A DNA stretch of 64,000 nucleotides from Candidatus Poribacteria bacterium (GTDB taxonomy: Bacteria > Poribacteria > WGA-4E > WGA-3G), in assembly GCA_958295815.1 (NCBI GenBank), contig OY282374.1, positions 311,416-375,415 of the forward strand. The letters run 5' to 3'. Position numbers and translations under genes: made by a program. The notes beneath the pieces were generated by a model. That model was given only the letters and a program-made list of their open reading frames with translations, searched no databases and was not told where the DNA came from. Positions 1,482 to 64,000 of the stretch are shown here, one piece after another (the stretch's first letter is position 1; each line of letters starts with the position of its first letter).

Positions 1482-4085
1482 ATGAAATTACCGCTTGTCA
1501 TCATCACGCTTTTTATAACATGCCTGTCCGTCACACACGCGCTACCACCTGATCCTGAACTTCAAAGTGCAATCCAGACCGCACGGAAATTCAAGCGCCT
1601 CAAACCAAGGTACACTCTAAACGAAATAACAGAATGTGCAACCGATAGTTTTGTCACTCTCGCTAAAAATTGGCACAACTTACCCTCGGTGTATCGGCAG
1701 GAACTCAAACCAATTTTCCTACGTCCCGGACTTCCGGGCAGCTTTTTCGGCGAGATACAACTATCCGAACACTTCAACACGCCGCACTTCAGACTCCACT
1801 ATACGCGCGTCGGACCGCATGCACCACCACTTGAGGATTTCCATCCACGCAATGGAGTTCCAGATTACGTCGATCGTTGTGCCGATGCAATGGAACGCTC
1901 CTATCACATCCAGATCCACCTGATGGGATTCAAGGTCCCTTACATCGACTTTTGGGCAGCACAGAACGGCGGCAACCATAAATATGACGTCTATCTCTTT
2001 ACCTTTCCCGCGCTCGGCATCACAACCGCTGACTGGTTTGAAGGACGCATCTTATCCACAGCACTGACCGTCGCACCCTATTTCATGATCAATTCCCGTA
2101 TCTACGATTACGTCGGAAAAATGGAAGGACTTCGCTATCTCGACACAACTTGCACCCACGAATTCCTACACGGTGTACAGTTCGGGTACAACGCCTATAT
2201 GCCAACATGGTTCATGGAGGCATCCGCAACATGGATAGAAGCGATAACCTACGATGGCGGAGAAATTGATGATGGTGATAACCTCCCCGATCCAGATGAA
2301 CCCAACGAAACCAATTCCTATAACTACTACATCCATCAACTCCGCCGTTGGTTTCTAATTCCAGATATCTCGCTTGAAAGCCGTATCGGCGACCACGAAT
2401 ACGGATCCGTTATCTGGACATTGTATATAGCTGAACGGTTCGGCTACGATATCGTCCGACAGTTTTACCGGAACACCACCGATGGTAGTTATCGAGAGTT
2501 TGGAAATTTTTACGATGTTTTCACCGATAACGGCACAACCCTTGCCGAGGTGTTCAAAACCTTCACTGTATGGAATTATTTCACCCACACCCGTGCCAAT
2601 ACAACAACCCAAATACGCGGCTACAAGAACGCAAACCGTTTCCCACCAGTTGCCATTCATCCGAACGATGTTCACACCAGTTATCCAGTCCGCGCCGATT
2701 TCGATTCTGAGTCAATGCCTGAACATTTTTCATCACGGTATATTGTTTTCCGTCCTGCAGGGATTATGCCGGAATTCGCAATCAAAATTGATGGCGCGGA
2801 TATCGCGCCAATAGATCTACGTCGCCTGCCTCCTGAAGATCACGATGACATTCGGAGCGAACTGCAACGACTCAACAATACAGGTTTGCGTGGATGGGCT
2901 GCCAAATTTATCGTCAGAAAACGGGATGGTACGACTGAAATCAGGGAGGCGTTCACCTATCAACGTTCCCAAGAAGCGCAGATGACATTCAAAGATTTCG
3001 GGGGCGACATCAAGGAGATCACGCTTATCCTGATTAATATGCACCCCGATGTTGAACGTGTAATAATTCCGGGTGGAAGTTTCGGCGGTTTTGTCAGTTA
3101 TATAGCGGGAGCACCCCCTGCGGGAAGGCTGTCAAACGCACAGGTCTCTCAAGGCTCGAATGGACCTCTTGTGGCGTGGAATATTGACGATCCAACCGGT
3201 ATTCGGGAAGTCGCAATCGTCCGAAAACGCTACACACTACAGAGCGAGACAGATGTTCCACAACCTTTTCAGGTACCCGATGAAATCCTCGCTGCCGCTG
3301 ATCGTAACGACAACGGTATCCCTGATGACGATATAACTGTTGTCGGACGCATAGATGTCTCGCAAACGCGGTTTGAGGACACAACAGTTTTTGAAGGCAT
3401 TGATGTTGACAGTGATTCATTTGATCCCAACAATCTACATTATTACTACGCTGTTGTACCTGTTGACGCGATGGGACTTATGGGCACACCGAGTATTGTG
3501 CCAGACAGCATCACGCCTCAGGTAGATGCATCAAGTGGTGCTCCTGCCTTCTTTATTCATACACAACCGCACGGTACAGGTGAATGGAATGTTGAGGTGC
3601 AAAGCACGCAGCCTCTACAAAGCGCACCACACCTGACAGTAGAAAGCCCTGACAGAAACGGATATACTGTCTTTTTAACGCAGGAAACCGCAACAAAGTG
3701 GATCGGCAAACTCCGTACTGATGGATTTCCACCGACAGGGATCTATCTCTATAAAATCCGTGGGCAGACACCTACTGGCGTGAGCAGCACCCGAATTTGG
3801 CAAGGACAAACTTTTAGTTACGTTGCAAGTCACACGAATCGAAATGTCACAGTCGCACCCAACCCACTCCATGCTGGGCAAGGTAAGCATCTGACCTTCT
3901 ATCCGAAGGGATTAACCGTTGAAATCTACGATGCTTTGGGAAATTTAATTAAAGTGCTAAACGATGCCTCACAGTGGGATTGCACGAACGCACGCGGCGA
4001 AATGGTCTGCACCGGGCTATACTTTTTCCGGGCGACCGACGGAAACGGTTTCCAAAGTACCGGTAAATTCTGTGTGGTTAAATGA
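1482..4085 (+). CDS. Secreted HExxH metalloprotease-like protein with T9SS/FlgD-Ig-like C-terminal sorting domain
   Basis: 867-aa ORF with an N-terminal signal peptide. Zinc-binding-type motif THEFLHGVQ. The C-terminal ~75 aa (NPLHAGQ..LTVEIYDALGNLIKVL..GLYFFRATDGNG..GKFCVVK) matches the pattern of type-A T9SS / FlgD-like C-terminal domains. Confidence 0.6.
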   Translation: MKLPLVIITLFITCLSVTHALPPDPELQSAIQTARKFKRLKPRYTLNEITECATDSFVTLAKNWHNLPSVYRQELKPIFLRPGLPGSFFGEIQLSEHFNTPHFRLHYTRVGPHAPPLEDFHPRNGVPDYVDRCADAMERSYHIQIHLMGFKVPYIDFWAAQNGGNHKYDVYLFTFPALGITTADWFEGRILSTALTVAPYFMINSRIYDYVGKMEGLRYLDTTCTHEFLHGVQFGYNAYMPTWFMEASATWIEAITYDGGEIDDGDNLPDPDEPNETNSYNYYIHQLRRWFLIPDISLESRIGDHEYGSVIWTLYIAERFGYDIVRQFYRNTTDGSYREFGNFYDVFTDNGTTLAEVFKTFTVWNYFTHTRANTTTQIRGYKNANRFPPVAIHPNDVHTSYPVRADFDSESMPEHFSSRYIVFRPAGIMPEFAIKIDGADIAPIDLRRLPPEDHDDIRSELQRLNNTGLRGWAAKFIVRKRDGTTEIREAFTYQRSQEAQMTFKDFGGDIKEITLILINMHPDVERVIIPGGSFGGFVSYIAGAPPAGRLSNAQVSQGSNGPLVAWNIDDPTGIREVAIVRKRYTLQSETDVPQPFQVPDEILAAADRNDNGIPDDDITVVGRIDVSQTRFEDTTVFEGIDVDSDSFDPNNLHYYYAVVPVDAMGLMGTPSIVPDSITPQVDASSGAPAFFIHTQPHGTGEWNVEVQSTQPLQSAPHLTVESPDRNGYTVFLTQETATKWIGKLRTDGFPPTGIYLYKIRGQTPTGVSSTRIWQGQTFSYVASHTNRNVTVAPNPLHAGQGKHLTFYPKGLTVEIYDALGNLIKVLNDASQWDCTNARGEMVCTGLYFFRATDGNGFQSTGKFCVVK

Positions 4086-24347: not shown

Positions 24348-26576
24348 ATGAACTATACTAAACAAGTTTGTGCTTTGGTTTTCTTAGCAATGTTATCTAC
24401 ATCTCTAACAGTCGTTGCCGATGAGGAAACCGAAGAGATTGTTATGATGGAAGAGGTCGTCGTTACTGCTCGGAAACGTGAGCAGCGATCCTTTGAAGTC
24501 CCACTCTCCGTCTCAACTATCCGAGGCGACAAATCCGATGCCTTGCGTTCATCAGGCATGGATATACGTTTTTTATCGAACCGTACTCCGAGTTTGCAGA
24601 TGGAGTCGTCATTCGGACGTATCTTTCCACGCTTTTTTATCCGTGGTCTCGGCAATACAGACTTTGACCTCAACGCCTCACAGCCAGTGTCAGTTCTCTA
24701 CGACGGGGTTGTACTCGAAAACGCGATGTTGAAAGGATTTCCCGCCTTTGACTTAGATCGGATTGAAGTGCTACGTGGACCACAAGGCACACTGTTTGGA
24801 CGCAATACACCCGCAGGCATTGTGAAGTTTGAATCGGCACGTCCTACCCAGACATTGGAGGGATACGGACGACTGAGTTACGGACGGTTCAATAGCAGCA
24901 ATTTTGAAGGCGCAGTATCGGGTCCACTCGTTCCTTCTGTGCTTTCCGCAAGACTTTCACTGCTGGCTCAGTGGCGGGATGATTGGGTGAATAACGAACA
25001 CACTGGCGAAGATGGTGTCTTAGGCGGACATCGCGACTTAGCTGGACGTCTCCAACTGTTGTGGACCCCCATGCCAGAACTCCAAGCGTGGCTTAAATTC
25101 CATGCGCGCGACCTTGACGGCACGGCGCGCCTATTTCGTGCGAATATCTTGTCGAAGGGCGAAGGCGGTCTGGTTCAGGATTTCGCCCGCGACCGTATCG
25201 CGCACGACGGACGCAATGAACAGACCCTGAGAACGCAGGGATTGACTGCTGAAGTCCGTTACGACATCGGAAATTTCCAACTCGTTTCGCTGACAGGACT
25301 GGAACAACTCACCAACTTTTCGCGTGGGGACATTGATGGCGGATACAGTGCCGCGTTCAGTCCGCCGAGTGGTCCTGGCGATATTCCTTTTCCTTCTGAG
25401 ACAGCGTCCGGTGTTCCCGCACTTCGCCAGTTTAGCCAAGAAGTCCGGTTGATGAGTCCAGAAGCGCGTCGTCTCGTCTACCAGTTCGGGGTGTACTATT
25501 TTCGTGAGTTTGTAGAGTTGGAGGATTTCAACTACAATACTTTGGCTGGAGGCACTTTGGATGGCGAAGCGCGCCAAGAGCAGACAGCCACAGCACAGGC
25601 GGCATTTGCGGCGATGACTTTCCAAATGCTTGAGGATCTGGAATTAGGGGCTGGATTACGACTGTCTCACGATGCGAAGGATTATACAGCATGGCGGGAC
25701 ATATCACCTATTGGCGCGGGTCCACTCAGTCCTATCCATCGGAACCCTCAAGACACGGTGTGGAGTGGGGATCTGAGTCTCCGCTATCGCGTAACACCTA
25801 ATGTCCAGACCTATTTGCGCGCAGCACGAGGATTCCGAGCACCCAGCATTCAGGGACGCTTACTATTTGGTGATGCCGTCACAATGGCGGATACGGAAAT
25901 CATCCATTCCTTTGAAGGTGGCACGAAGTTGCGCCTGTGGCAGCAACGGCTACACCTAAATATGGGCGCGTTCCAATACTTTATGCAGGATCAGCAACTT
26001 ACTGCGGTCGGTGGAGAGACCAATTTCAATCGGTTAGTAAATGCTGATAGTACCATTGGGCGGGGGGTTGAGGCGGAGTTAACTTTCCTACCGGTTACAC
26101 CTCTGGAAATTTCAGCGGGACTCAGTTACAACCAGACACGCATTGACGATCCGAATTTGGCTATCCAAGGATGTGGCGCACCGTGTACGATTCTCGATCC
26201 GAGTGCTTCTGCGCAGGGAACTTTTTCTATAAACGGCAACAGTCTGCCGCAAGCACCCGGTTGGATTGCAGATGTGACCCTACGCTACGTTCTTGAACTT
26301 CCGGGTGGAACGCGCCTCATCGCATCCACGGACTGGGCGTATCGGAGTCGAGTACGGTTTTTCCTCTACGAATCTGTGGAATACGCCGACGACTGGCTCT
26401 TAGAGGGTGGTGTCCGCCTTGCCTGTCTATTGCCCTATGCTGACATAGAGGTGGCACTGATCGGACGTAATATCCTCAACGATACATCGCCCACCGGCGG
26501 CATTGATTTCAACAATCTAACCGGTTATGTCAATGAACCCCGATTTTGGAGCTTGGAAATGGTGCGCCGTTTTTGA
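24348..26576 (+). CDS. TonB-dependent outer-membrane receptor
   Basis: Signal peptide. Plug region EEVVVTARKREQ and RIEVLRGPQGTLFGRNTPAGIV. Long beta-barrel region and a C-terminal aromatic residue (..MVRRF). Confidence 0.85.
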   Translation: MNYTKQVCALVFLAMLSTSLTVVADEETEEIVMMEEVVVTARKREQRSFEVPLSVSTIRGDKSDALRSSGMDIRFLSNRTPSLQMESSFGRIFPRFFIRGLGNTDFDLNASQPVSVLYDGVVLENAMLKGFPAFDLDRIEVLRGPQGTLFGRNTPAGIVKFESARPTQTLEGYGRLSYGRFNSSNFEGAVSGPLVPSVLSARLSLLAQWRDDWVNNEHTGEDGVLGGHRDLAGRLQLLWTPMPELQAWLKFHARDLDGTARLFRANILSKGEGGLVQDFARDRIAHDGRNEQTLRTQGLTAEVRYDIGNFQLVSLTGLEQLTNFSRGDIDGGYSAAFSPPSGPGDIPFPSETASGVPALRQFSQEVRLMSPEARRLVYQFGVYYFREFVELEDFNYNTLAGGTLDGEARQEQTATAQAAFAAMTFQMLEDLELGAGLRLSHDAKDYTAWRDISPIGAGPLSPIHRNPQDTVWSGDLSLRYRVTPNVQTYLRAARGFRAPSIQGRLLFGDAVTMADTEIIHSFEGGTKLRLWQQRLHLNMGAFQYFMQDQQLTAVGGETNFNRLVNADSTIGRGVEAELTFLPVTPLEISAGLSYNQTRIDDPNLAIQGCGAPCTILDPSASAQGTFSINGNSLPQAPGWIADVTLRYVLELPGGTRLIASTDWAYRSRVRFFLYESVEYADDWLLEGGVRLACLLPYADIEVALIGRNILNDTSPTGGIDFNNLTGYVNEPRFWSLEMVRRF

Positions 26577-26646
26577 GTGGATTATAGGAATAAGCAGATA
26601 TTTCGATAAACAGTGGGATCAAAAACGCTCCACTACCGCTGATTTC

Positions 26647-26730
26647 GGTCATCCTGAAAATCCTAAAATCCTGTGAATCCTGGTTCTGACAATCCATCGC
26701 TAATCGCTGATTGCTGACCGCTATTCCGCC
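26647..26730. repeat. Dispersed intergenic element GGTCATCCTGAAAATCCT...TTCTGACAATCCA...GCTGA-rich tail
   Basis: A second copy lies at 33053-33125. The tail GCTGACCGCTATTCCGC also resembles 13050-13070. Confidence 0.55.
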
Positions 26731-26762
26731 AACAACTTATACCTAATGTGGGATAAAAATAT

Positions 26763-26791
26763 TTGACATCCCACATAGGATATGGTATCAT
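26763..26791 (+). promoter_or_regulatory. Near-consensus sigma-70-type promoter upstream of the ileS leader
   Basis: TTGACA (26763-26768), an exact 17-nt spacer, then TATCAT (26786-26791). Confidence 0.55.
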
Positions 26792-26889
26792 AATTAACAA
26801 GTCCACGTTACCAAACAAATTTTTGCTGATTCAAATAATACATGGACAAAAAATTGCTTACCACATTGACGTCGCAATATGAGGAACCT

Positions 26890-26988
26890 ATGTGCTACAA
26901 TGCCCAGCATCAAAATAGCCTTCGTGCTGTTGTGGGTTCGCGCGCCATATCCATTATTATTGCTATCCGTCGTACTGTGGTGGGCTGA
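26890..26988 (+). CDS. Candidate Ile-rich leader peptide (32 aa) of an ileS attenuator
   Basis: Hand translation gives MCYNAQHQNSLRAVVGSRAISIIIAIRRTVVG*. GAGGAA lies 3 nt upstream of the ATG. Five Ile codons fall among 7 consecutive codons (26947-26967). An in-frame ATG at 26842 would give 48 aa. Confidence 0.45.
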   Translation: MCYNAQHQNSLRAVVGSRAISIIIAIRRTVVG

Positions 26989-27017
26989 TCACAGGCAGAT
27001 ACGCAGTTTTTATTCGG

Positions 27018-27064
27018 ACGCCCATCACTGAAACGAACAATTTCAGTGGGGCGTTTTCTTTTTT
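27018..27064 (+). terminator. Intrinsic terminator between the leader ORF and ileS
   Basis: ACGCCCATCACTGAAA / loop CGAACAA / TTTCAGTGGGGCGT forms 8 + 6 bp with a 2-nt bulge. It is followed by TTTCTTTTTT, about 60 nt before the ileS ATG. Confidence 0.65.
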
Positions 27065-27124
27065 AACGTAGGTAGTAGACTAAAGTCCTTGATCTAGAGA
27101 TCGAGACTACATGAGGGAATTCAC

Positions 27125-30100
27125 ATGTTTGAAGAGGTATCACCGCAATTCACGTTTGCTGAGAAAGAAAAACAGACCTTGGCGTTCTGGCGTGAAAATG
27201 ACATCTTTCAGAAGAGCATGGAGCTGCGCAAAGATGCAACACCATTTGTCTTCTTAGAGGGACCGCCGTTTGCCAATGCGCCACCCGGTGTCCATCATGC
27301 CCTCGCCCGCATCATGAAAGATGCCGTCTGCCGTTACAAGACGATGACAGGACATTACGTTCACAGAAAAGCGGGCTGGGACACGCACGGACTCCCCGTT
27401 GAATATCAGGTCGAAAAGCAACTTAATATCACAAATAAAGCCGAACTCGAGGCTTACGGCGTTCAGAACTTTATCGAAAAATGTAAAGAGAACGTGTTCC
27501 AATACGAGCAGGATTGGCGAAAGATGACGGAACGCATCGGATTCTGGGTCAACTTGGACGATGCCTATATCACGTTGTCGAACGACTACATTGAGAGCGT
27601 CTGGTGGGTCCTCCGTCAGGCATGGGATAAGGAATTGCTGTATCAGGGGCATAAGGTACAACCTTACTGCTATCGGTGCGGCACGACCTTAGCAAGCCAC
27701 GAAGTCGCACTCGGTTACCAAGAGGTCTCCGATCCATCTATCTTTGTGCGCTTCCCCTTGAAAAATAAAGAGAACGCCTACCTACTTGTCTGGACGACAA
27801 CACCTTGGACGTTGCCATCTAATGTCGCTGTTGCTGTCGGTGAGGATTACGATTATGTTGCTGTTGAACATGACGGGCAACACCTCATCCTCGCGAAGGC
27901 GTGTATGCCCAGCTTATTTGGAGATGAATCCCCGGAAATCGTCGAGAACTATAAAGGCGCGGACCTCCGAAATTGGGAATACGAACCGTTGTTTGATAGT
28001 GGACAGTATCCAGAAAAATCGCATTATATCGTCACAGCGGATTTCGTGACGACGACAGAGGGTAGCGGATTAGTCCATATCGCTCCCGCCTTCGGGCAAG
28101 ACGATTACGAGATCGGACAGAAACACAACATGCCACTCGTGCAATTGGTCGGTGCTGATGGTAGGTTCGTCCCAGAGGTTAAAGAACCCTGGGCAGGCGA
28201 GTATGTCAAAGACGCCGATCCGAAAATCATTGAGAACTTGGACGGACGCGGCTTGTTATTTAAGGCTACCGAGTATACCCACCAATACCCCTTCTGTTGG
28301 AGATGTGACAACCCACTACTCTACTACGCACGTGAATCGTGGTTTGTCCGCACGACCGCTATCCGCGATCAGATGCACCAGAACAATCAGCAGATTAACT
28401 GGTATCCAGAACATATCAAAGATGGAAGATTTGGCAACTGGTTAGAGAACAACATCGATTGGGGATTGAGTCGTGAACGTTATTGGGGGACACCCTTACC
28501 GGTCTGGATCTGCGATGGCTGTGGGAATCAACACTGTGTTGGTAGTATCGCCGAACTGCAGGAACTCGGTACCGACGTTCCAGACGATATTGAACTACAC
28601 CGTCCGTATGTAGACGATGTCGTCCTTAATTGTGGCGAGTGCAGTGGCACGATGCATCGCGTTCAAGATGTAATTGACTGCTGGTTTGACTCTGGCTGCG
28701 CACACACAGCACAATGGCACTACCCCTTTGAGAACAAAGAGATGCTGGAGCAGGCGTATCCCGCCGATTTCATCTCCGAAGCCATTGATCAGACCCGCGG
28801 TTGGTTCTATAGCCTCTTGGCAACCGGGACACTTCTCTATGATAAACCGGCTTACAAGAACTGCCTTTGCCTTGAACTAATTATGGGACCCGACGGTCAA
28901 AAGATGAGCAAGAGCCGAGGGAACACAGTGGATCCGTGGACAATCCTCAACAAGCAAGGCGCGGATGCGATGCGCTGGTATATGTTCACCGCAACCACAC
29001 CGTGGACACCACGCGCTTTCAAACCAGAGGGCATTGATGAAGCGTTGAAGAGGTTCATGGGAACCCTTCATAACGTCTATAGTTTTTTCGTCATGTATGC
29101 CAATCTGGAACAGGTTGATGTATTGCAGGATGCACCACCGGTTACGGAACGTGCTGTTGTAGACAGATGGATCTTATCGCGTCTCCATACCCTCATCGAC
29201 AACGTGCGCGGCGAGATGGAGAATTACCATCTCACAAATGCACCGCGCGCCATTGAAGCGTTTGTAGACGATCTCAGCAACTGGTACGTCCGTCGCTCCC
29301 GCGACCGCTTCTGGGGTGCGCAAGCCGGACCCGACAAGCAGGCGGCTTACGCTACGCTTTATGAGGTACTTGTAACCGTTGCGAAACTCGCTGCGCCGTT
29401 CATCCCGTTTTTGGCGGATGAACTCTACCGAAACTTGGTATGTTCGCTCGATGCTGATGCACCACCGAGTGTTCATCTTGCGGAATACCCAGTTGCAAAC
29501 GCCTCGTTGAGAGATTCACAACTTGAAACCGACATGGCTTTCACACGCGAAGTAATCAGCATGGGACATGCCGCACGTAACCGGTCAGGCATTAAAACGC
29601 GCCAACCGCTTGCTGAACTCACCCTTGGAGGTCTCTCCGATGCAGAAAAAGAGACCGTTAATCGTTTGGCGGAACTCGTCCACGATGAACTCAATGTCAA
29701 GGCTGTTGTCTTCACAGAGAATCTGGACGCATTCGCACAGGTGACACTCAAGCCCAACTTCAGAGTCCTCGGACCGAAATACGGCAAAGGTGTGCAAACC
29801 ATCGCGAAGGCACTCGCGACCGCTGATGCAATGCAGATGAAGGCTGAGTTGGAAGCCGCGGGCAGTTTACAGATCGAAGCGTCGGGAGAGACATACACGC
29901 TTGAGCAGTCAGACATCGATGTACAAACACAGAATCGAGAGGGTTTCTTTGTAGAGATGGACGCGAGGAAATTCGCTGTTCTGTCAACGGAACTGACCCA
30001 CGAGTTGACGCTTGAGGGCTTAGCACGCGAACTCGTCAACAAAATCCAGAATATGCGGAAGGATGCCGATTTTAACGTCGCGGATCGGATTAAACTCAGT

Positions 30101-30268
30101 CTGGAAACGCCATCATCACTTGTTGAAGAAGCGTTTCAGGCGCATCGGGACTATATCCTGCAGGAGACACTGACAGCAGCTGTCGTTGAGTCTCCAAGCG
30201 AAAACGCATTCACTGTTGACCAAAAATTAAACGGTGAACCGGCAACCGTGAGCGTCGAGCAGATTTAA
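27125..30268 (+). CDS. ileS: Isoleucine--tRNA ligase, long (type-2-like) form
   Basis: 1047 aa. PPFANAPPGVHHALARIMKD (HIGH-region variant), KMSKSRGN, and the editing-domain pattern WTTTPWTLPSN. GAGGGA RBS. Confidence 0.9.
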   Translation: MFEEVSPQFTFAEKEKQTLAFWRENDIFQKSMELRKDATPFVFLEGPPFANAPPGVHHALARIMKDAVCRYKTMTGHYVHRKAGWDTHGLPVEYQVEKQLNITNKAELEAYGVQNFIEKCKENVFQYEQDWRKMTERIGFWVNLDDAYITLSNDYIESVWWVLRQAWDKELLYQGHKVQPYCYRCGTTLASHEVALGYQEVSDPSIFVRFPLKNKENAYLLVWTTTPWTLPSNVAVAVGEDYDYVAVEHDGQHLILAKACMPSLFGDESPEIVENYKGADLRNWEYEPLFDSGQYPEKSHYIVTADFVTTTEGSGLVHIAPAFGQDDYEIGQKHNMPLVQLVGADGRFVPEVKEPWAGEYVKDADPKIIENLDGRGLLFKATEYTHQYPFCWRCDNPLLYYARESWFVRTTAIRDQMHQNNQQINWYPEHIKDGRFGNWLENNIDWGLSRERYWGTPLPVWICDGCGNQHCVGSIAELQELGTDVPDDIELHRPYVDDVVLNCGECSGTMHRVQDVIDCWFDSGCAHTAQWHYPFENKEMLEQAYPADFISEAIDQTRGWFYSLLATGTLLYDKPAYKNCLCLELIMGPDGQKMSKSRGNTVDPWTILNKQGADAMRWYMFTATTPWTPRAFKPEGIDEALKRFMGTLHNVYSFFVMYANLEQVDVLQDAPPVTERAVVDRWILSRLHTLIDNVRGEMENYHLTNAPRAIEAFVDDLSNWYVRRSRDRFWGAQAGPDKQAAYATLYEVLVTVAKLAAPFIPFLADELYRNLVCSLDADAPPSVHLAEYPVANASLRDSQLETDMAFTREVISMGHAARNRSGIKTRQPLAELTLGGLSDAEKETVNRLAELVHDELNVKAVVFTENLDAFAQVTLKPNFRVLGPKYGKGVQTIAKALATADAMQMKAELEAAGSLQIEASGETYTLEQSDIDVQTQNREGFFVEMDARKFAVLSTELTHELTLEGLARELVNKIQNMRKDADFNVADRIKLSLETPSSLVEEAFQAHRDYILQETLTAAVVESPSENAFTVDQKLNGEPATVSVEQI

Positions 30269-60179: not shown

Positions 60180-60567
60180 TATGTTCCTCTACCTATAGTT
60201 TACCAGTTTCGCGTTTTTTGAGCGAATGCAAAATGTCTGTACTGAGACGCCTCAAACCTCACCAGCAAGTCTTGTTGTGCGGACTTTAGAAGATGTTTAA
60301 TCTGCGGTGCTAATACGTTATAACCTAATCTACTTCTTTTTCTTCATTATAGAACGGGTGCCGCGAACTAACAGTTTACGCTACAATACCCTTTCATTGA
60401 ACTCACGTTAATATAAAGACACAGTTTTGTGATGGAAAGGATGCATAAATTTGATGCTACTGAATTTTTATGTTAACTACGTGGGTGGATGCATAGTATA
60501 GGCGCACGAAGGGTGAAGCAGGATTATGAAGTGATGATGGTAAAAGGGTGGTTAGGAAAGGAAAAAG

Positions 60568-60641
60568 TGGGCTTACCTGGAATCGAACCAGGGACCTCGC
60601 GCTTATCAGGCGCGCGCTCTAACCGTCTGAGCTATAAGCCC
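60568..60641 (-). tRNA. tRNA-Ile (anticodon GAU)
   Basis: The minus strand folds by hand into a cloverleaf: GGGCTTA-TA-GCTC-AGACGGTTA-GAGC-G-CGCGC-CTGATAA-GCGCG-AGGTC-CCTGG-TTCGATT-CCAGG-TAAGCCC-A. The anticodon loop is CUGAUAA. CCA is not encoded. Confidence 0.9.

Positions 60642-63510: not shown

Positions 63511-64000
<490 letters not shown>

Follow-up and report, generated by a model that had tools for sequence, protein, structure and literature searches.

Leader-peptide attenuation is textbook material for amino acid biosynthetic operons and for pheST of Escherichia coli, where a short open reading frame (ORF) rich in cognate codons, pheM, forms an attenuator ahead of an aminoacyl-tRNA synthetase gene and provides feedback through charged tRNA. 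Among the biosynthetic leaders, those of the ilv operons mix Ile, Val and Leu codons. Here we analyze a locus of Candidatus Poribacteria at which the same logic appears to be applied to ileS, the gene of isoleucyl-tRNA synthetase (IleRS). The locus lies in a window of 64,000 nucleotides (nt) of contig OY282374.1 (assembly GCA_958295815.1, positions 311,416 to 375,415 of the forward strand), and all coordinates below are positions in that window. With a probability of roughly 0.8, the comparative sequence evidence identifies the region upstream of ileS as a ribosome-mediated (leader-peptide) transcription attenuator that would tune ileS expression to the supply of charged tRNA-Ile. The class of mechanism is well known, and no concept is changed by the finding.

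Attenuation of synthetase genes has been put forward in several bacterial groups. The pheST system is cited as a gamma-proteobacterial example, and attenuators of trpS and leuS have been predicted in Streptomyces (PMC1262725); His leaders have been reported for Bacillus hisS paralogs (PMC2965389), and leader peptides of cysS and other aminoacyl-tRNA synthetase genes for Deinococcus deserti (PMC4007540). Ribosome profiling in Caulobacter listed a trpS leader and an 'ileS leader CDS CCNA_03934', the latter named without elaboration and used as a control (PMC4117421); what it shares with the present locus is the downstream gene, ileS. The documented mechanism for ileS is the T-box, found in Firmicutes and, in translational form, in Actinobacteria (PMC1262725). 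None of these four papers (PMC1262725, PMC2965389, PMC4007540, PMC4117421) deals with Poribacteria or contains a covarying switch model for ileS, and our literature search returned no paper on an Ile-codon attenuator of ileS or on any attenuator in Poribacteria. A first-pass annotation of the window, made from sequence alone, had held that attenuation of this kind was not described for ileS, which is nearly right, the unelaborated Caulobacter leader being what it missed (PMC4117421).

The elements of the ileS leader in the window, listed in order of position and all on the + strand, are as follows.

26763..26791, +, sigma-70 promoter: -35 TTGACA at 26763-26768, 17-nt spacer, -10 TATCAT at 26786-26791.
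26842..26988, +, leader ORF: 48 codons plus a TGA stop (26986-26988), encoding MDKKLLTTLTSQYEEPMCYNAQHQNSLRAVVGSRAISIIIAIRRTVVG.
26857..26885, +, region 1, putative anti-antiterminator 5' strand: CUUACCACA, its UGACG and GCAAUA segments being complementary to region 2 and the Ile run.
26881..26892, +, alternative in-frame start: Shine-Dalgarno-like GAGGAA at 26881-26886, ATG at 26890-26892.
26947..26967, +, putative regulatory Ile codon cluster: ATA TCC ATT ATT ATT GCT ATC (I-S-I-I-I-A-I).
26975..26985, +, region 2, putative antiterminator 5' strand: CTGTGGTGGGC / CUGUGGUGGGC, immediately 5' of the leader stop (26986-26988).
27016..27064, +, intrinsic terminator: 5' arm 27016-27033 (region 3), loop 27034-27040, 3' arm 27041-27056 (region 4), U-tract 27054-27064.
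27113-27118, +, ileS Shine-Dalgarno sequence: GAGGGA.
27125-30268, +, ileS ORF: type-2 IleRS of 1047 amino acids with PF00133, Anticodon_1 and a C-terminal DUF5915.

The promoter fits the consensus at 11 of 12 positions and carries an extended -10 TG at 26783-26784, and transcription would start near 26798. No promoter-like site was found between the terminator and ileS in a promoter scan of the window region. The terminator stem (27016-27056, -20.1 kcal/mol) has 16 bp and an AU bulge; UUUUCUUUUUU follows the stem, and the terminator ends 60 nt upstream of the ileS ATG at 27125. Region 2 pairs with GCCCATCACTG / GCCCAUCACUG (27020-27030), within the terminator 5' arm, at 10 of 11 positions, one of them a G-U pair and the remaining one a U-U mismatch, to give a continuous helix of -16.6 kcal/mol. 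The leader ORF, which ends in GSRAISIIIAIRRTVVG followed by its stop at 26988, contains Ile at five of the seven codons in 26947-26967. Promoter, terminator position, antiterminator pairing and the run of ATA, ATT, ATT, ATT and ATC within 21 nt had all been proposed in the first-pass annotation, and its coordinates for them check out; the ORF that it drew from 26890 to 26988 stands as to frame, stop and Ile codons, and gives way as to its start, since the same frame extends to an ATG at 26842 that has an equivalent in 53 of 56 related leaders.

As in pheST, an ORF with cognate codons and alternative antiterminator and terminator hairpins precede a synthetase gene. Unlike pheST, the present leader uses Ile instead of Phe codons, belongs to type-2 ileS in Poribacteria and uncultured relatives, has no sequence similarity to its counterpart, and contains a longer ORF (37-50 codons) whose stop directly abuts the antiterminator strand. 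The proposed pairing logic, with a 1:2 anti-antiterminator or pause hairpin, a 2:3 antiterminator, a 3:4 terminator and regulatory codons placed 5' of region 2, would be that of the trp, his, leu, thr, ilvGMEDA and ilvBN leaders, and Ile codons are used as in the ilv leaders, in contrast to which Ile is here the only enriched codon class; unlike biosynthetic-operon leaders, this one would control a synthetase, and it matches no Rfam leader family. With the synthetase leader peptides of other phyla it shares a short upstream ORF with cognate codons ahead of the synthetase gene. With the ileS T-box it would share the sensing of tRNA-Ile charging by a 5'-leader switch of the terminator/antiterminator or sequestrator type; unlike in the T-box, the sensor would be the translating ribosome and not direct binding of tRNA, and the defining T-box motifs are absent.

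We infer from this layout a mechanism built on leader translation, stalling geometry, kinetic competition and a response to Ile. Transcription from the promoter at 26763-26791 would begin at about 26798, and a ribosome would translate the leader ORF 26842-26988, or the same frame from 26890. With ample Ile-tRNA-Ile, the ribosome would reach the stop at 26986-26988 and mask region 2 (26975-26985), whereas with no ribosome engaged, region 1 (26857-26885) would hold region 2; in both situations regions 3 and 4 would pair, the terminator at 27016-27064 would form and transcription would end 60 nt before ileS. With scarce Ile-tRNA-Ile, the ribosome would stall on the Ile codons at 26947-26967, and its footprint would open most of the 1:2 helix and end before or just inside region 2. 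A ribosome reaches about 13 nt downstream, and the distance from the start of the Ile run to region 2 is 22 nt in the window and approximately 15-27 nt in two other leader families (B and C, below), so that a stalled ribosome is predicted to leave region 2 free. The freed strand would then capture the emerging terminator 5' arm (27020-27030), precluding the terminator and allowing read-through into ileS. Because IleRS makes Ile-tRNA-Ile, the circuit would constitute a negative feedback on its own product. The first-pass annotation had advanced the same logic, with stalling at Ile codons giving read-through and arrival at the stop giving termination, and it gains computational support from the conservation, compensatory changes and unguided folding described next.

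An IleRS-based scan retrieved 80 loci, all in Candidatus Poribacteria metagenome-assembled genomes (MAGs) and with IleRS 64-93% identical to that of the window. Searching by nhmmer with the window's own promoter-to-terminator segment, we recovered the whole unit ahead of ileS at 71 of 75 sponge-type loci; of the remaining four, three are truncated contigs and one is L059, described below. The first-pass annotation had pointed to comparison of related ileS upstream regions, and about 70 Poribacteria ileS loci do keep all three of Ile-rich ORF, terminator and antiterminator pairing, which recur, with different sequences, in distant lineages. The gene 5' of the unit in the window encodes a TonB-dependent receptor, and a homologue of it stands upstream in only 9 of 102 loci, so that the leader unit is tied to ileS and not to its 5' neighbor. 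In the window, the leader ahead of ileS is ~330 nt long. In an alignment of 56 leader sequences (A1), the -35 and -10 positions of the promoter are invariant or nearly so. A terminator was found in all leader-bearing loci, at a distance from the ileS ATG that ranges from 13 to 747 nt among related loci and is 13-23 nt in some.

Two observations concern the architecture of individual loci. At L059 (positions 2640-3003; Poribacteria MAG contig CATQHZ020000001.1), the same promoter, TTGACAT...TATGGTATCATAAT, lies about 60 nt before the ileS ATG, with neither leader ORF nor terminator, the promoter being fused directly to ileS; judging from its sequence, this locus would represent a natural deletion of the attenuator, leaving ileS constitutive in that lineage. 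The spacer between terminator and ileS is often filled with short repeats, either AACTGATAACCGATAAC-like units or GGAAGG...CTTCC inverted units (for instance at L012, L014, L016, L021, L046, L058 and L062), as if small repetitive elements inserted there repeatedly.

Beyond the window's own leader family, here called family A, independent leader families precede ileS genes whose products are 51-64% identical to the window's IleRS. The family B leader (IleRS 64% identical) encodes MLTITVIISSVLISIIILIDGGQKA, family B' leaders (59-62%) end in SSIIIIIRLLKDGGQENRS or AIIIIIRAISNDGGQARTTP, and family C leaders (51-58%; 12 sediment and groundwater contigs, mostly with an AGGTG Shine-Dalgarno sequence) read M[DNS]FAGK...YIIIIRLLQTMVGNEISS, each followed by a stop. 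Apart from their Ile runs, the peptides of families A, B and C show no relationship to one another; runs of three to five Ile recur and end just ahead of a shared RNA motif. A strong terminator follows the ORF at a distance of 13-60 nt in families B, B' and C, and its 5' arm, GCCCAYC..., complements a GGUGGGC-containing segment at the 3' end of the ORF. This segment is read as GUG-GGC in families A and C and as GGU-GGG-C in families B and B', so the Ile-rich ORF has been kept in different frames relative to the RNA core. At ileS loci with at most 45% IleRS identity, no terminator or leader was found. We lean, without strong conviction, toward a single ancient attenuator family of type-2 ileS, spanning Poribacteria and neighboring uncultured lineages (to ~54% IleRS identity), in which the RNA core (GGUGGGC / GCCCAYC plus a CACCA-type region 1) would have been retained while the leader ORF was repeatedly rebuilt, including by frame shift relative to the core, with the Ile run always regenerated.

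The Ile cluster itself is far beyond chance. Among 753 other short ATG-initiated ORFs of the 64-kb window, 0.27% contain at least four Ile in seven codons and none contains five, a density that only 4 of 20000 shuffles of the leader ORF attained. Across loci, 87 of ~114 have at least four Ile in seven codons. Within family A the cluster is conserved, expanding to IIII or IIIII, and its Ile codons are fixed, with free variation (S, F, H, R, Q or D) at the codon that separates the first Ile from the run. Codon and RNA constraints are confounded in family A, which is why the distant families were compared; in families B, B' and C the Ile positions show synonymous variation, with 38 ATT, 22 ATC, 17 ATA and 0 ATG. 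This pattern, established computationally, points to selection on Ile codon identity. It also bears on the alternative that survives best, a translation-coupled attenuator that would sense general translation capacity or ribosome availability, with the Ile run incidental, for instance a by-product of AT-richness or of ATT-repeat slippage. Such a reading would accommodate the family A run as an (ATT)n microsatellite-like tract that expands and contracts, the pairing of that run with GCAAUA in region 1, and the two further families (D and E) that manage with two or three Ile. We consider it improbable, given that Ile runs recur in at least four independent families with different nucleotide sequences and in different frames relative to the RNA core, that all three Ile codons are used synonymously and ATG never, that the background of such clusters is at most 0.27%, and that the regulated gene is the Ile-specific synthetase.

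The proposed helices can be followed across the same alignments. In the 56 leaders of A1, the 8-bp core of the antiterminator is 100% paired, with one compensatory pair, and the helix is recovered by unguided RNAalifold. Across families, 91.8% of positions are paired in 32 distinct region-2/region-3 combinations, against 32-67% in slid controls; both partners have changed at three pairs (G-C to A-U, C-G to U-A, and G-U/A-U/G-C at 26980:27025), and the observed covariation score was reached by 0 of 500 shuffles. The terminator covaries in family C; its column-wise covariation in A1 is uninformative because the register of the 3' arm differs between clades (GGGGCG vs GAGGGTG). Region 1 may supply a third element: 26857-26885 pairs with 26950-26984 in the minimum free energy fold, in a hairpin of -40.2 kcal/mol, and the equivalent 1:2 helix of family C (CUCACCAUUGG with CGAUGGUGGG) shows compensatory pairs under RNAalifold. 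With this anti-antiterminator, the four regions would make up the full layout of a classical attenuator, as far as sequence comparison can indicate. The leader RNA as a whole folds better than its shuffles (z = -2.6). We also folded nascent transcripts with a simulated ribosome footprint, whose size was assumed from general knowledge: the 2:3 helix forms in 37-40 of the 56 leaders with the A-site on Ile codons and in 0 of 56 with the A-site on the stop. These constrained folds are compatible with the attenuation model and not decisive.

Family C additionally shows a long-range helix not evident in family A. At L094, L097 and others (alignment A4, columns 19-30 with 168-180), the first codons of the ORF, UUUUGCUGGAAA, complement its last codons and stop, UUUCCAGCUAA, such that the helix encloses the entire ORF, perhaps as a translation-dependent clamp or pause structure.

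The leader ORF bears the signature of a translated frame. In A1, an ATG equivalent to 26842 is present in 53 of 56 leaders, and the ORF reaches the aligned stop in 54. Its length takes nine values between 37 and 50 codons and is a multiple of three in 55 of 56, while the 5' untranslated region takes 27 lengths with no phase preference and the spacer from stop to terminator (25-28 nt) differs by single nucleotides, again with no phase preference. The ORF frame is open in all 56 leaders, whereas the other two are open in 17 and 7. Conservation is poor in the middle of the leader, where in-frame deletions of 12-18 nt occur. Codon-position entropy revealed no excess of third-position variation in the mid-peptide, which suggests that selection in the middle of the ORF acts on the frame and not on the amino acid sequence, as expected of a regulatory leader ORF. 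The C-terminal ...IIIAIRRAVVG is conserved at the amino acid level in family A. The codon equivalent to 26890 is NTG in 44 of 56 leaders, with an AGGA/GGAG/GAGG motif upstream in 43, and at least one of the two starts is kept in every locus. Since indels between the 26842 and 26890 starts are also multiples of three, the upstream position is favored, and comparison of the aligned leaders makes it most likely that the conserved start is 26842 and not 26890.

The same coding signature weighs on a second alternative, that the leader is a tRNA- or ligand-sensing riboswitch, either a divergent T-box or a new aptamer, with the ORF untranslated. Regulation of ileS by T-boxes in Firmicutes and Actinobacteria gives this idea precedent (PMC1262725), the leader is long (~270 nt) and structured, as its z-score attests, and the UGGU of region 2 bears a superficial resemblance to the T-box UGGN. 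We nevertheless regard it as very improbable: the antiterminator runs on without the 7-nt bulge of a T-box, frame conservation and indels restricted to multiples of three are seen in the ORF only, the Ile positions vary among synonymous codons, and the mid-leader is both weakly conserved and subject to in-frame deletion. Rfam at gathering thresholds yielded no T-box, no leader family and nothing relevant in the window and 18 related loci, and cmscan at E<=1 on 26500-27300 (801 nt) returned no T-box, giving only sub-threshold chance matches to Yfr11 and mir-246. On these searches, a T-box or any other known RNA family was rejected.

E. coli ThrRS binds its own mRNA, and a third alternative is that the balance between terminator and antiterminator is shifted by a protein bound to the leader, be it IleRS or some other RNA-binding protein, perhaps as an extra layer, with the small ORF secondary. 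RNA-binding proteins often autoregulate via attenuators (PMC2965389). In searches with ARAGORN and Rfam, the genuine tRNA-Ile at 60567-60641 was all that appeared, with neither a tRNA-Ile-like fold nor a mimic of the anticodon arm detected, and binding of this kind would leave both the coding signature and the selection on Ile codons unexplained, making it another quite remote prospect. Least credible of all is that the ORF encodes a functional small hydrophobic protein, the hairpin being its terminator or that of the upstream gene and ileS having its own unrecognized promoter: the conserved family A C-terminus would suit this, and against it stand the mid-peptide without excess third-position variation, the unrelated peptides of families A, B and C, the absence of Pfam or NCBIfam matches for four representative leader peptides, the lack of a promoter-like site after the terminator, the placement of the terminator just 13-23 nt from the ileS ATG in some relatives, and the association of the unit with ileS instead of the upstream gene. 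Two component ideas were rejected separately: a functional small protein, with no Pfam/NCBIfam match and a peptide that is unconserved outside the Ile run and the RNA-constrained parts, and a terminator of the upstream TonB-receptor gene, as the leader tracks ileS across different neighborhoods.

Set against ribosome-mediated attenuation of ileS are the following points, some general and some specific to single loci. All sequences come from MAGs, and support is computational throughout. Full-length equilibrium folding always yields the terminator (-20.1 vs -16.6 kcal/mol for the antiterminator), so the decision of the switch must be kinetic. In classical attenuators the equilibrium fold likewise favors the terminator. 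The alternative pairing anticipated in the first-pass annotation is not favored by equilibrium folding alone, and it does appear in most of the footprint-constrained folds with a stall on Ile. Ribosome-free nascent RNA forms the 1:2 helix in 24 and the 2:3 helix in 28 of 56 leaders, and the window's own simulated stalls at Ile40 and Ile42 give other local folds. In family A the 1:2 helix is 90% paired, against 24-62% in slid controls, with little covariation over the 56 leaders. The family A Ile run also takes part in an RNA helix with region 1 (UAUUGC:GCAAUA), and its nucleotide conservation is confounded for that reason. The 16S rRNA 3' end in the window is canonical (...CACCUCCUUU), and no Shine-Dalgarno sequence precedes the ATG at 26842 in the window, that of 32 of 56 relatives being weak or lacking; the well-placed one belongs to the internal start at 26890, which renders the true leader start uncertain.

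Exceptions among the loci belong to the same account. Locus L007 retains only two Ile, locus L052 is frameshifted, and families D (L066, L085, L090) and E (L070, L071, L102) have only two or three Ile. On two independent contigs (L068 and L084), the Ile frame is closed by stops. Both contigs come from a family-B relative that has kept the RNA core and a stretch rich in ATT/ATA some 130 nt ahead of ileS, with two TAA codons in the Ile frame; the open ATG frame encodes MSSVLNYNNFDYNSD, which lacks Ile, and it terminates where region 2 begins on its 5' side. They could represent a decaying attenuator, a re-specified one, or non-canonical initiation.

Other features of the window and of related loci were noted in passing. 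The interval from the TonB-receptor gene to the ileS promoter contains, at 26652-26716, an iterated motif of ATCCTG type, TCCTGAAAATCCTAAAATCCTGTGAATCCTGGTTCTGACAA; closely resembling strings occur near ileS in Poribacteria loci L011, L018, L063 and L072, and the motif may be an intergenic repeat specific to the phylum. At 27088-27105, between the terminator and the ileS Shine-Dalgarno sequence, is a small hairpin, CUUGAUC-UAGA-GAUCGAG, which is kept, with base changes, in the closest relatives (L001, L006 and L065). The tRNA-Ile(GAU) gene at 60567-60641 (- strand), which decodes the ATT and ATC codons of the leader, is located ~2.9 kb beyond the 3' end of the 16S rRNA gene (63519-64000, - strand); the remaining 63.5 kb of the window yielded no 23S rRNA, which suggests that the rRNA operon is unlinked or split. 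Two contigs of one MAG (p16x63bins.62; L077 and L079) each bear an ileS gene 83-84% identical to the window's with its own leader, and could reflect a strain mixture in the bin or a duplicated ileS.

Computational analysis establishes the sequence elements and their conservation, the coding signature of the leader frame, the selection on Ile codons and the covariation of the helices, and as comparative evidence these are unusually clean, drawing on ~90 loci, several independent families, frame-shifted re-use of one RNA core and helix covariation. Ribosome-mediated attenuation at this locus would fill the ileS slot among leader-peptide attenuators for an uncultured phylum, and the aligned leaders could seed an Rfam or NCBIfam family, improving the annotation of Poribacteria and related MAGs. 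As a compact sensor of Ile-tRNA charging, the element may be of use in synthetic biology. The model predicts that ileS is induced in these organisms by Ile limitation or by IleRS inhibitors such as mupirocin. If all leaders do descend from one ancient family, they would provide a natural experiment in which codon identity is selected and not peptide or nucleotide sequence, and would constitute the first defined cis-regulatory RNA of this candidate phylum, a leader-peptide counterpart of the ileS T-box. Under the attenuation model, a diderm candidate phylum without cultured members would match its level of IleRS to tRNA-Ile charging by means of a ribosome-sensing switch.

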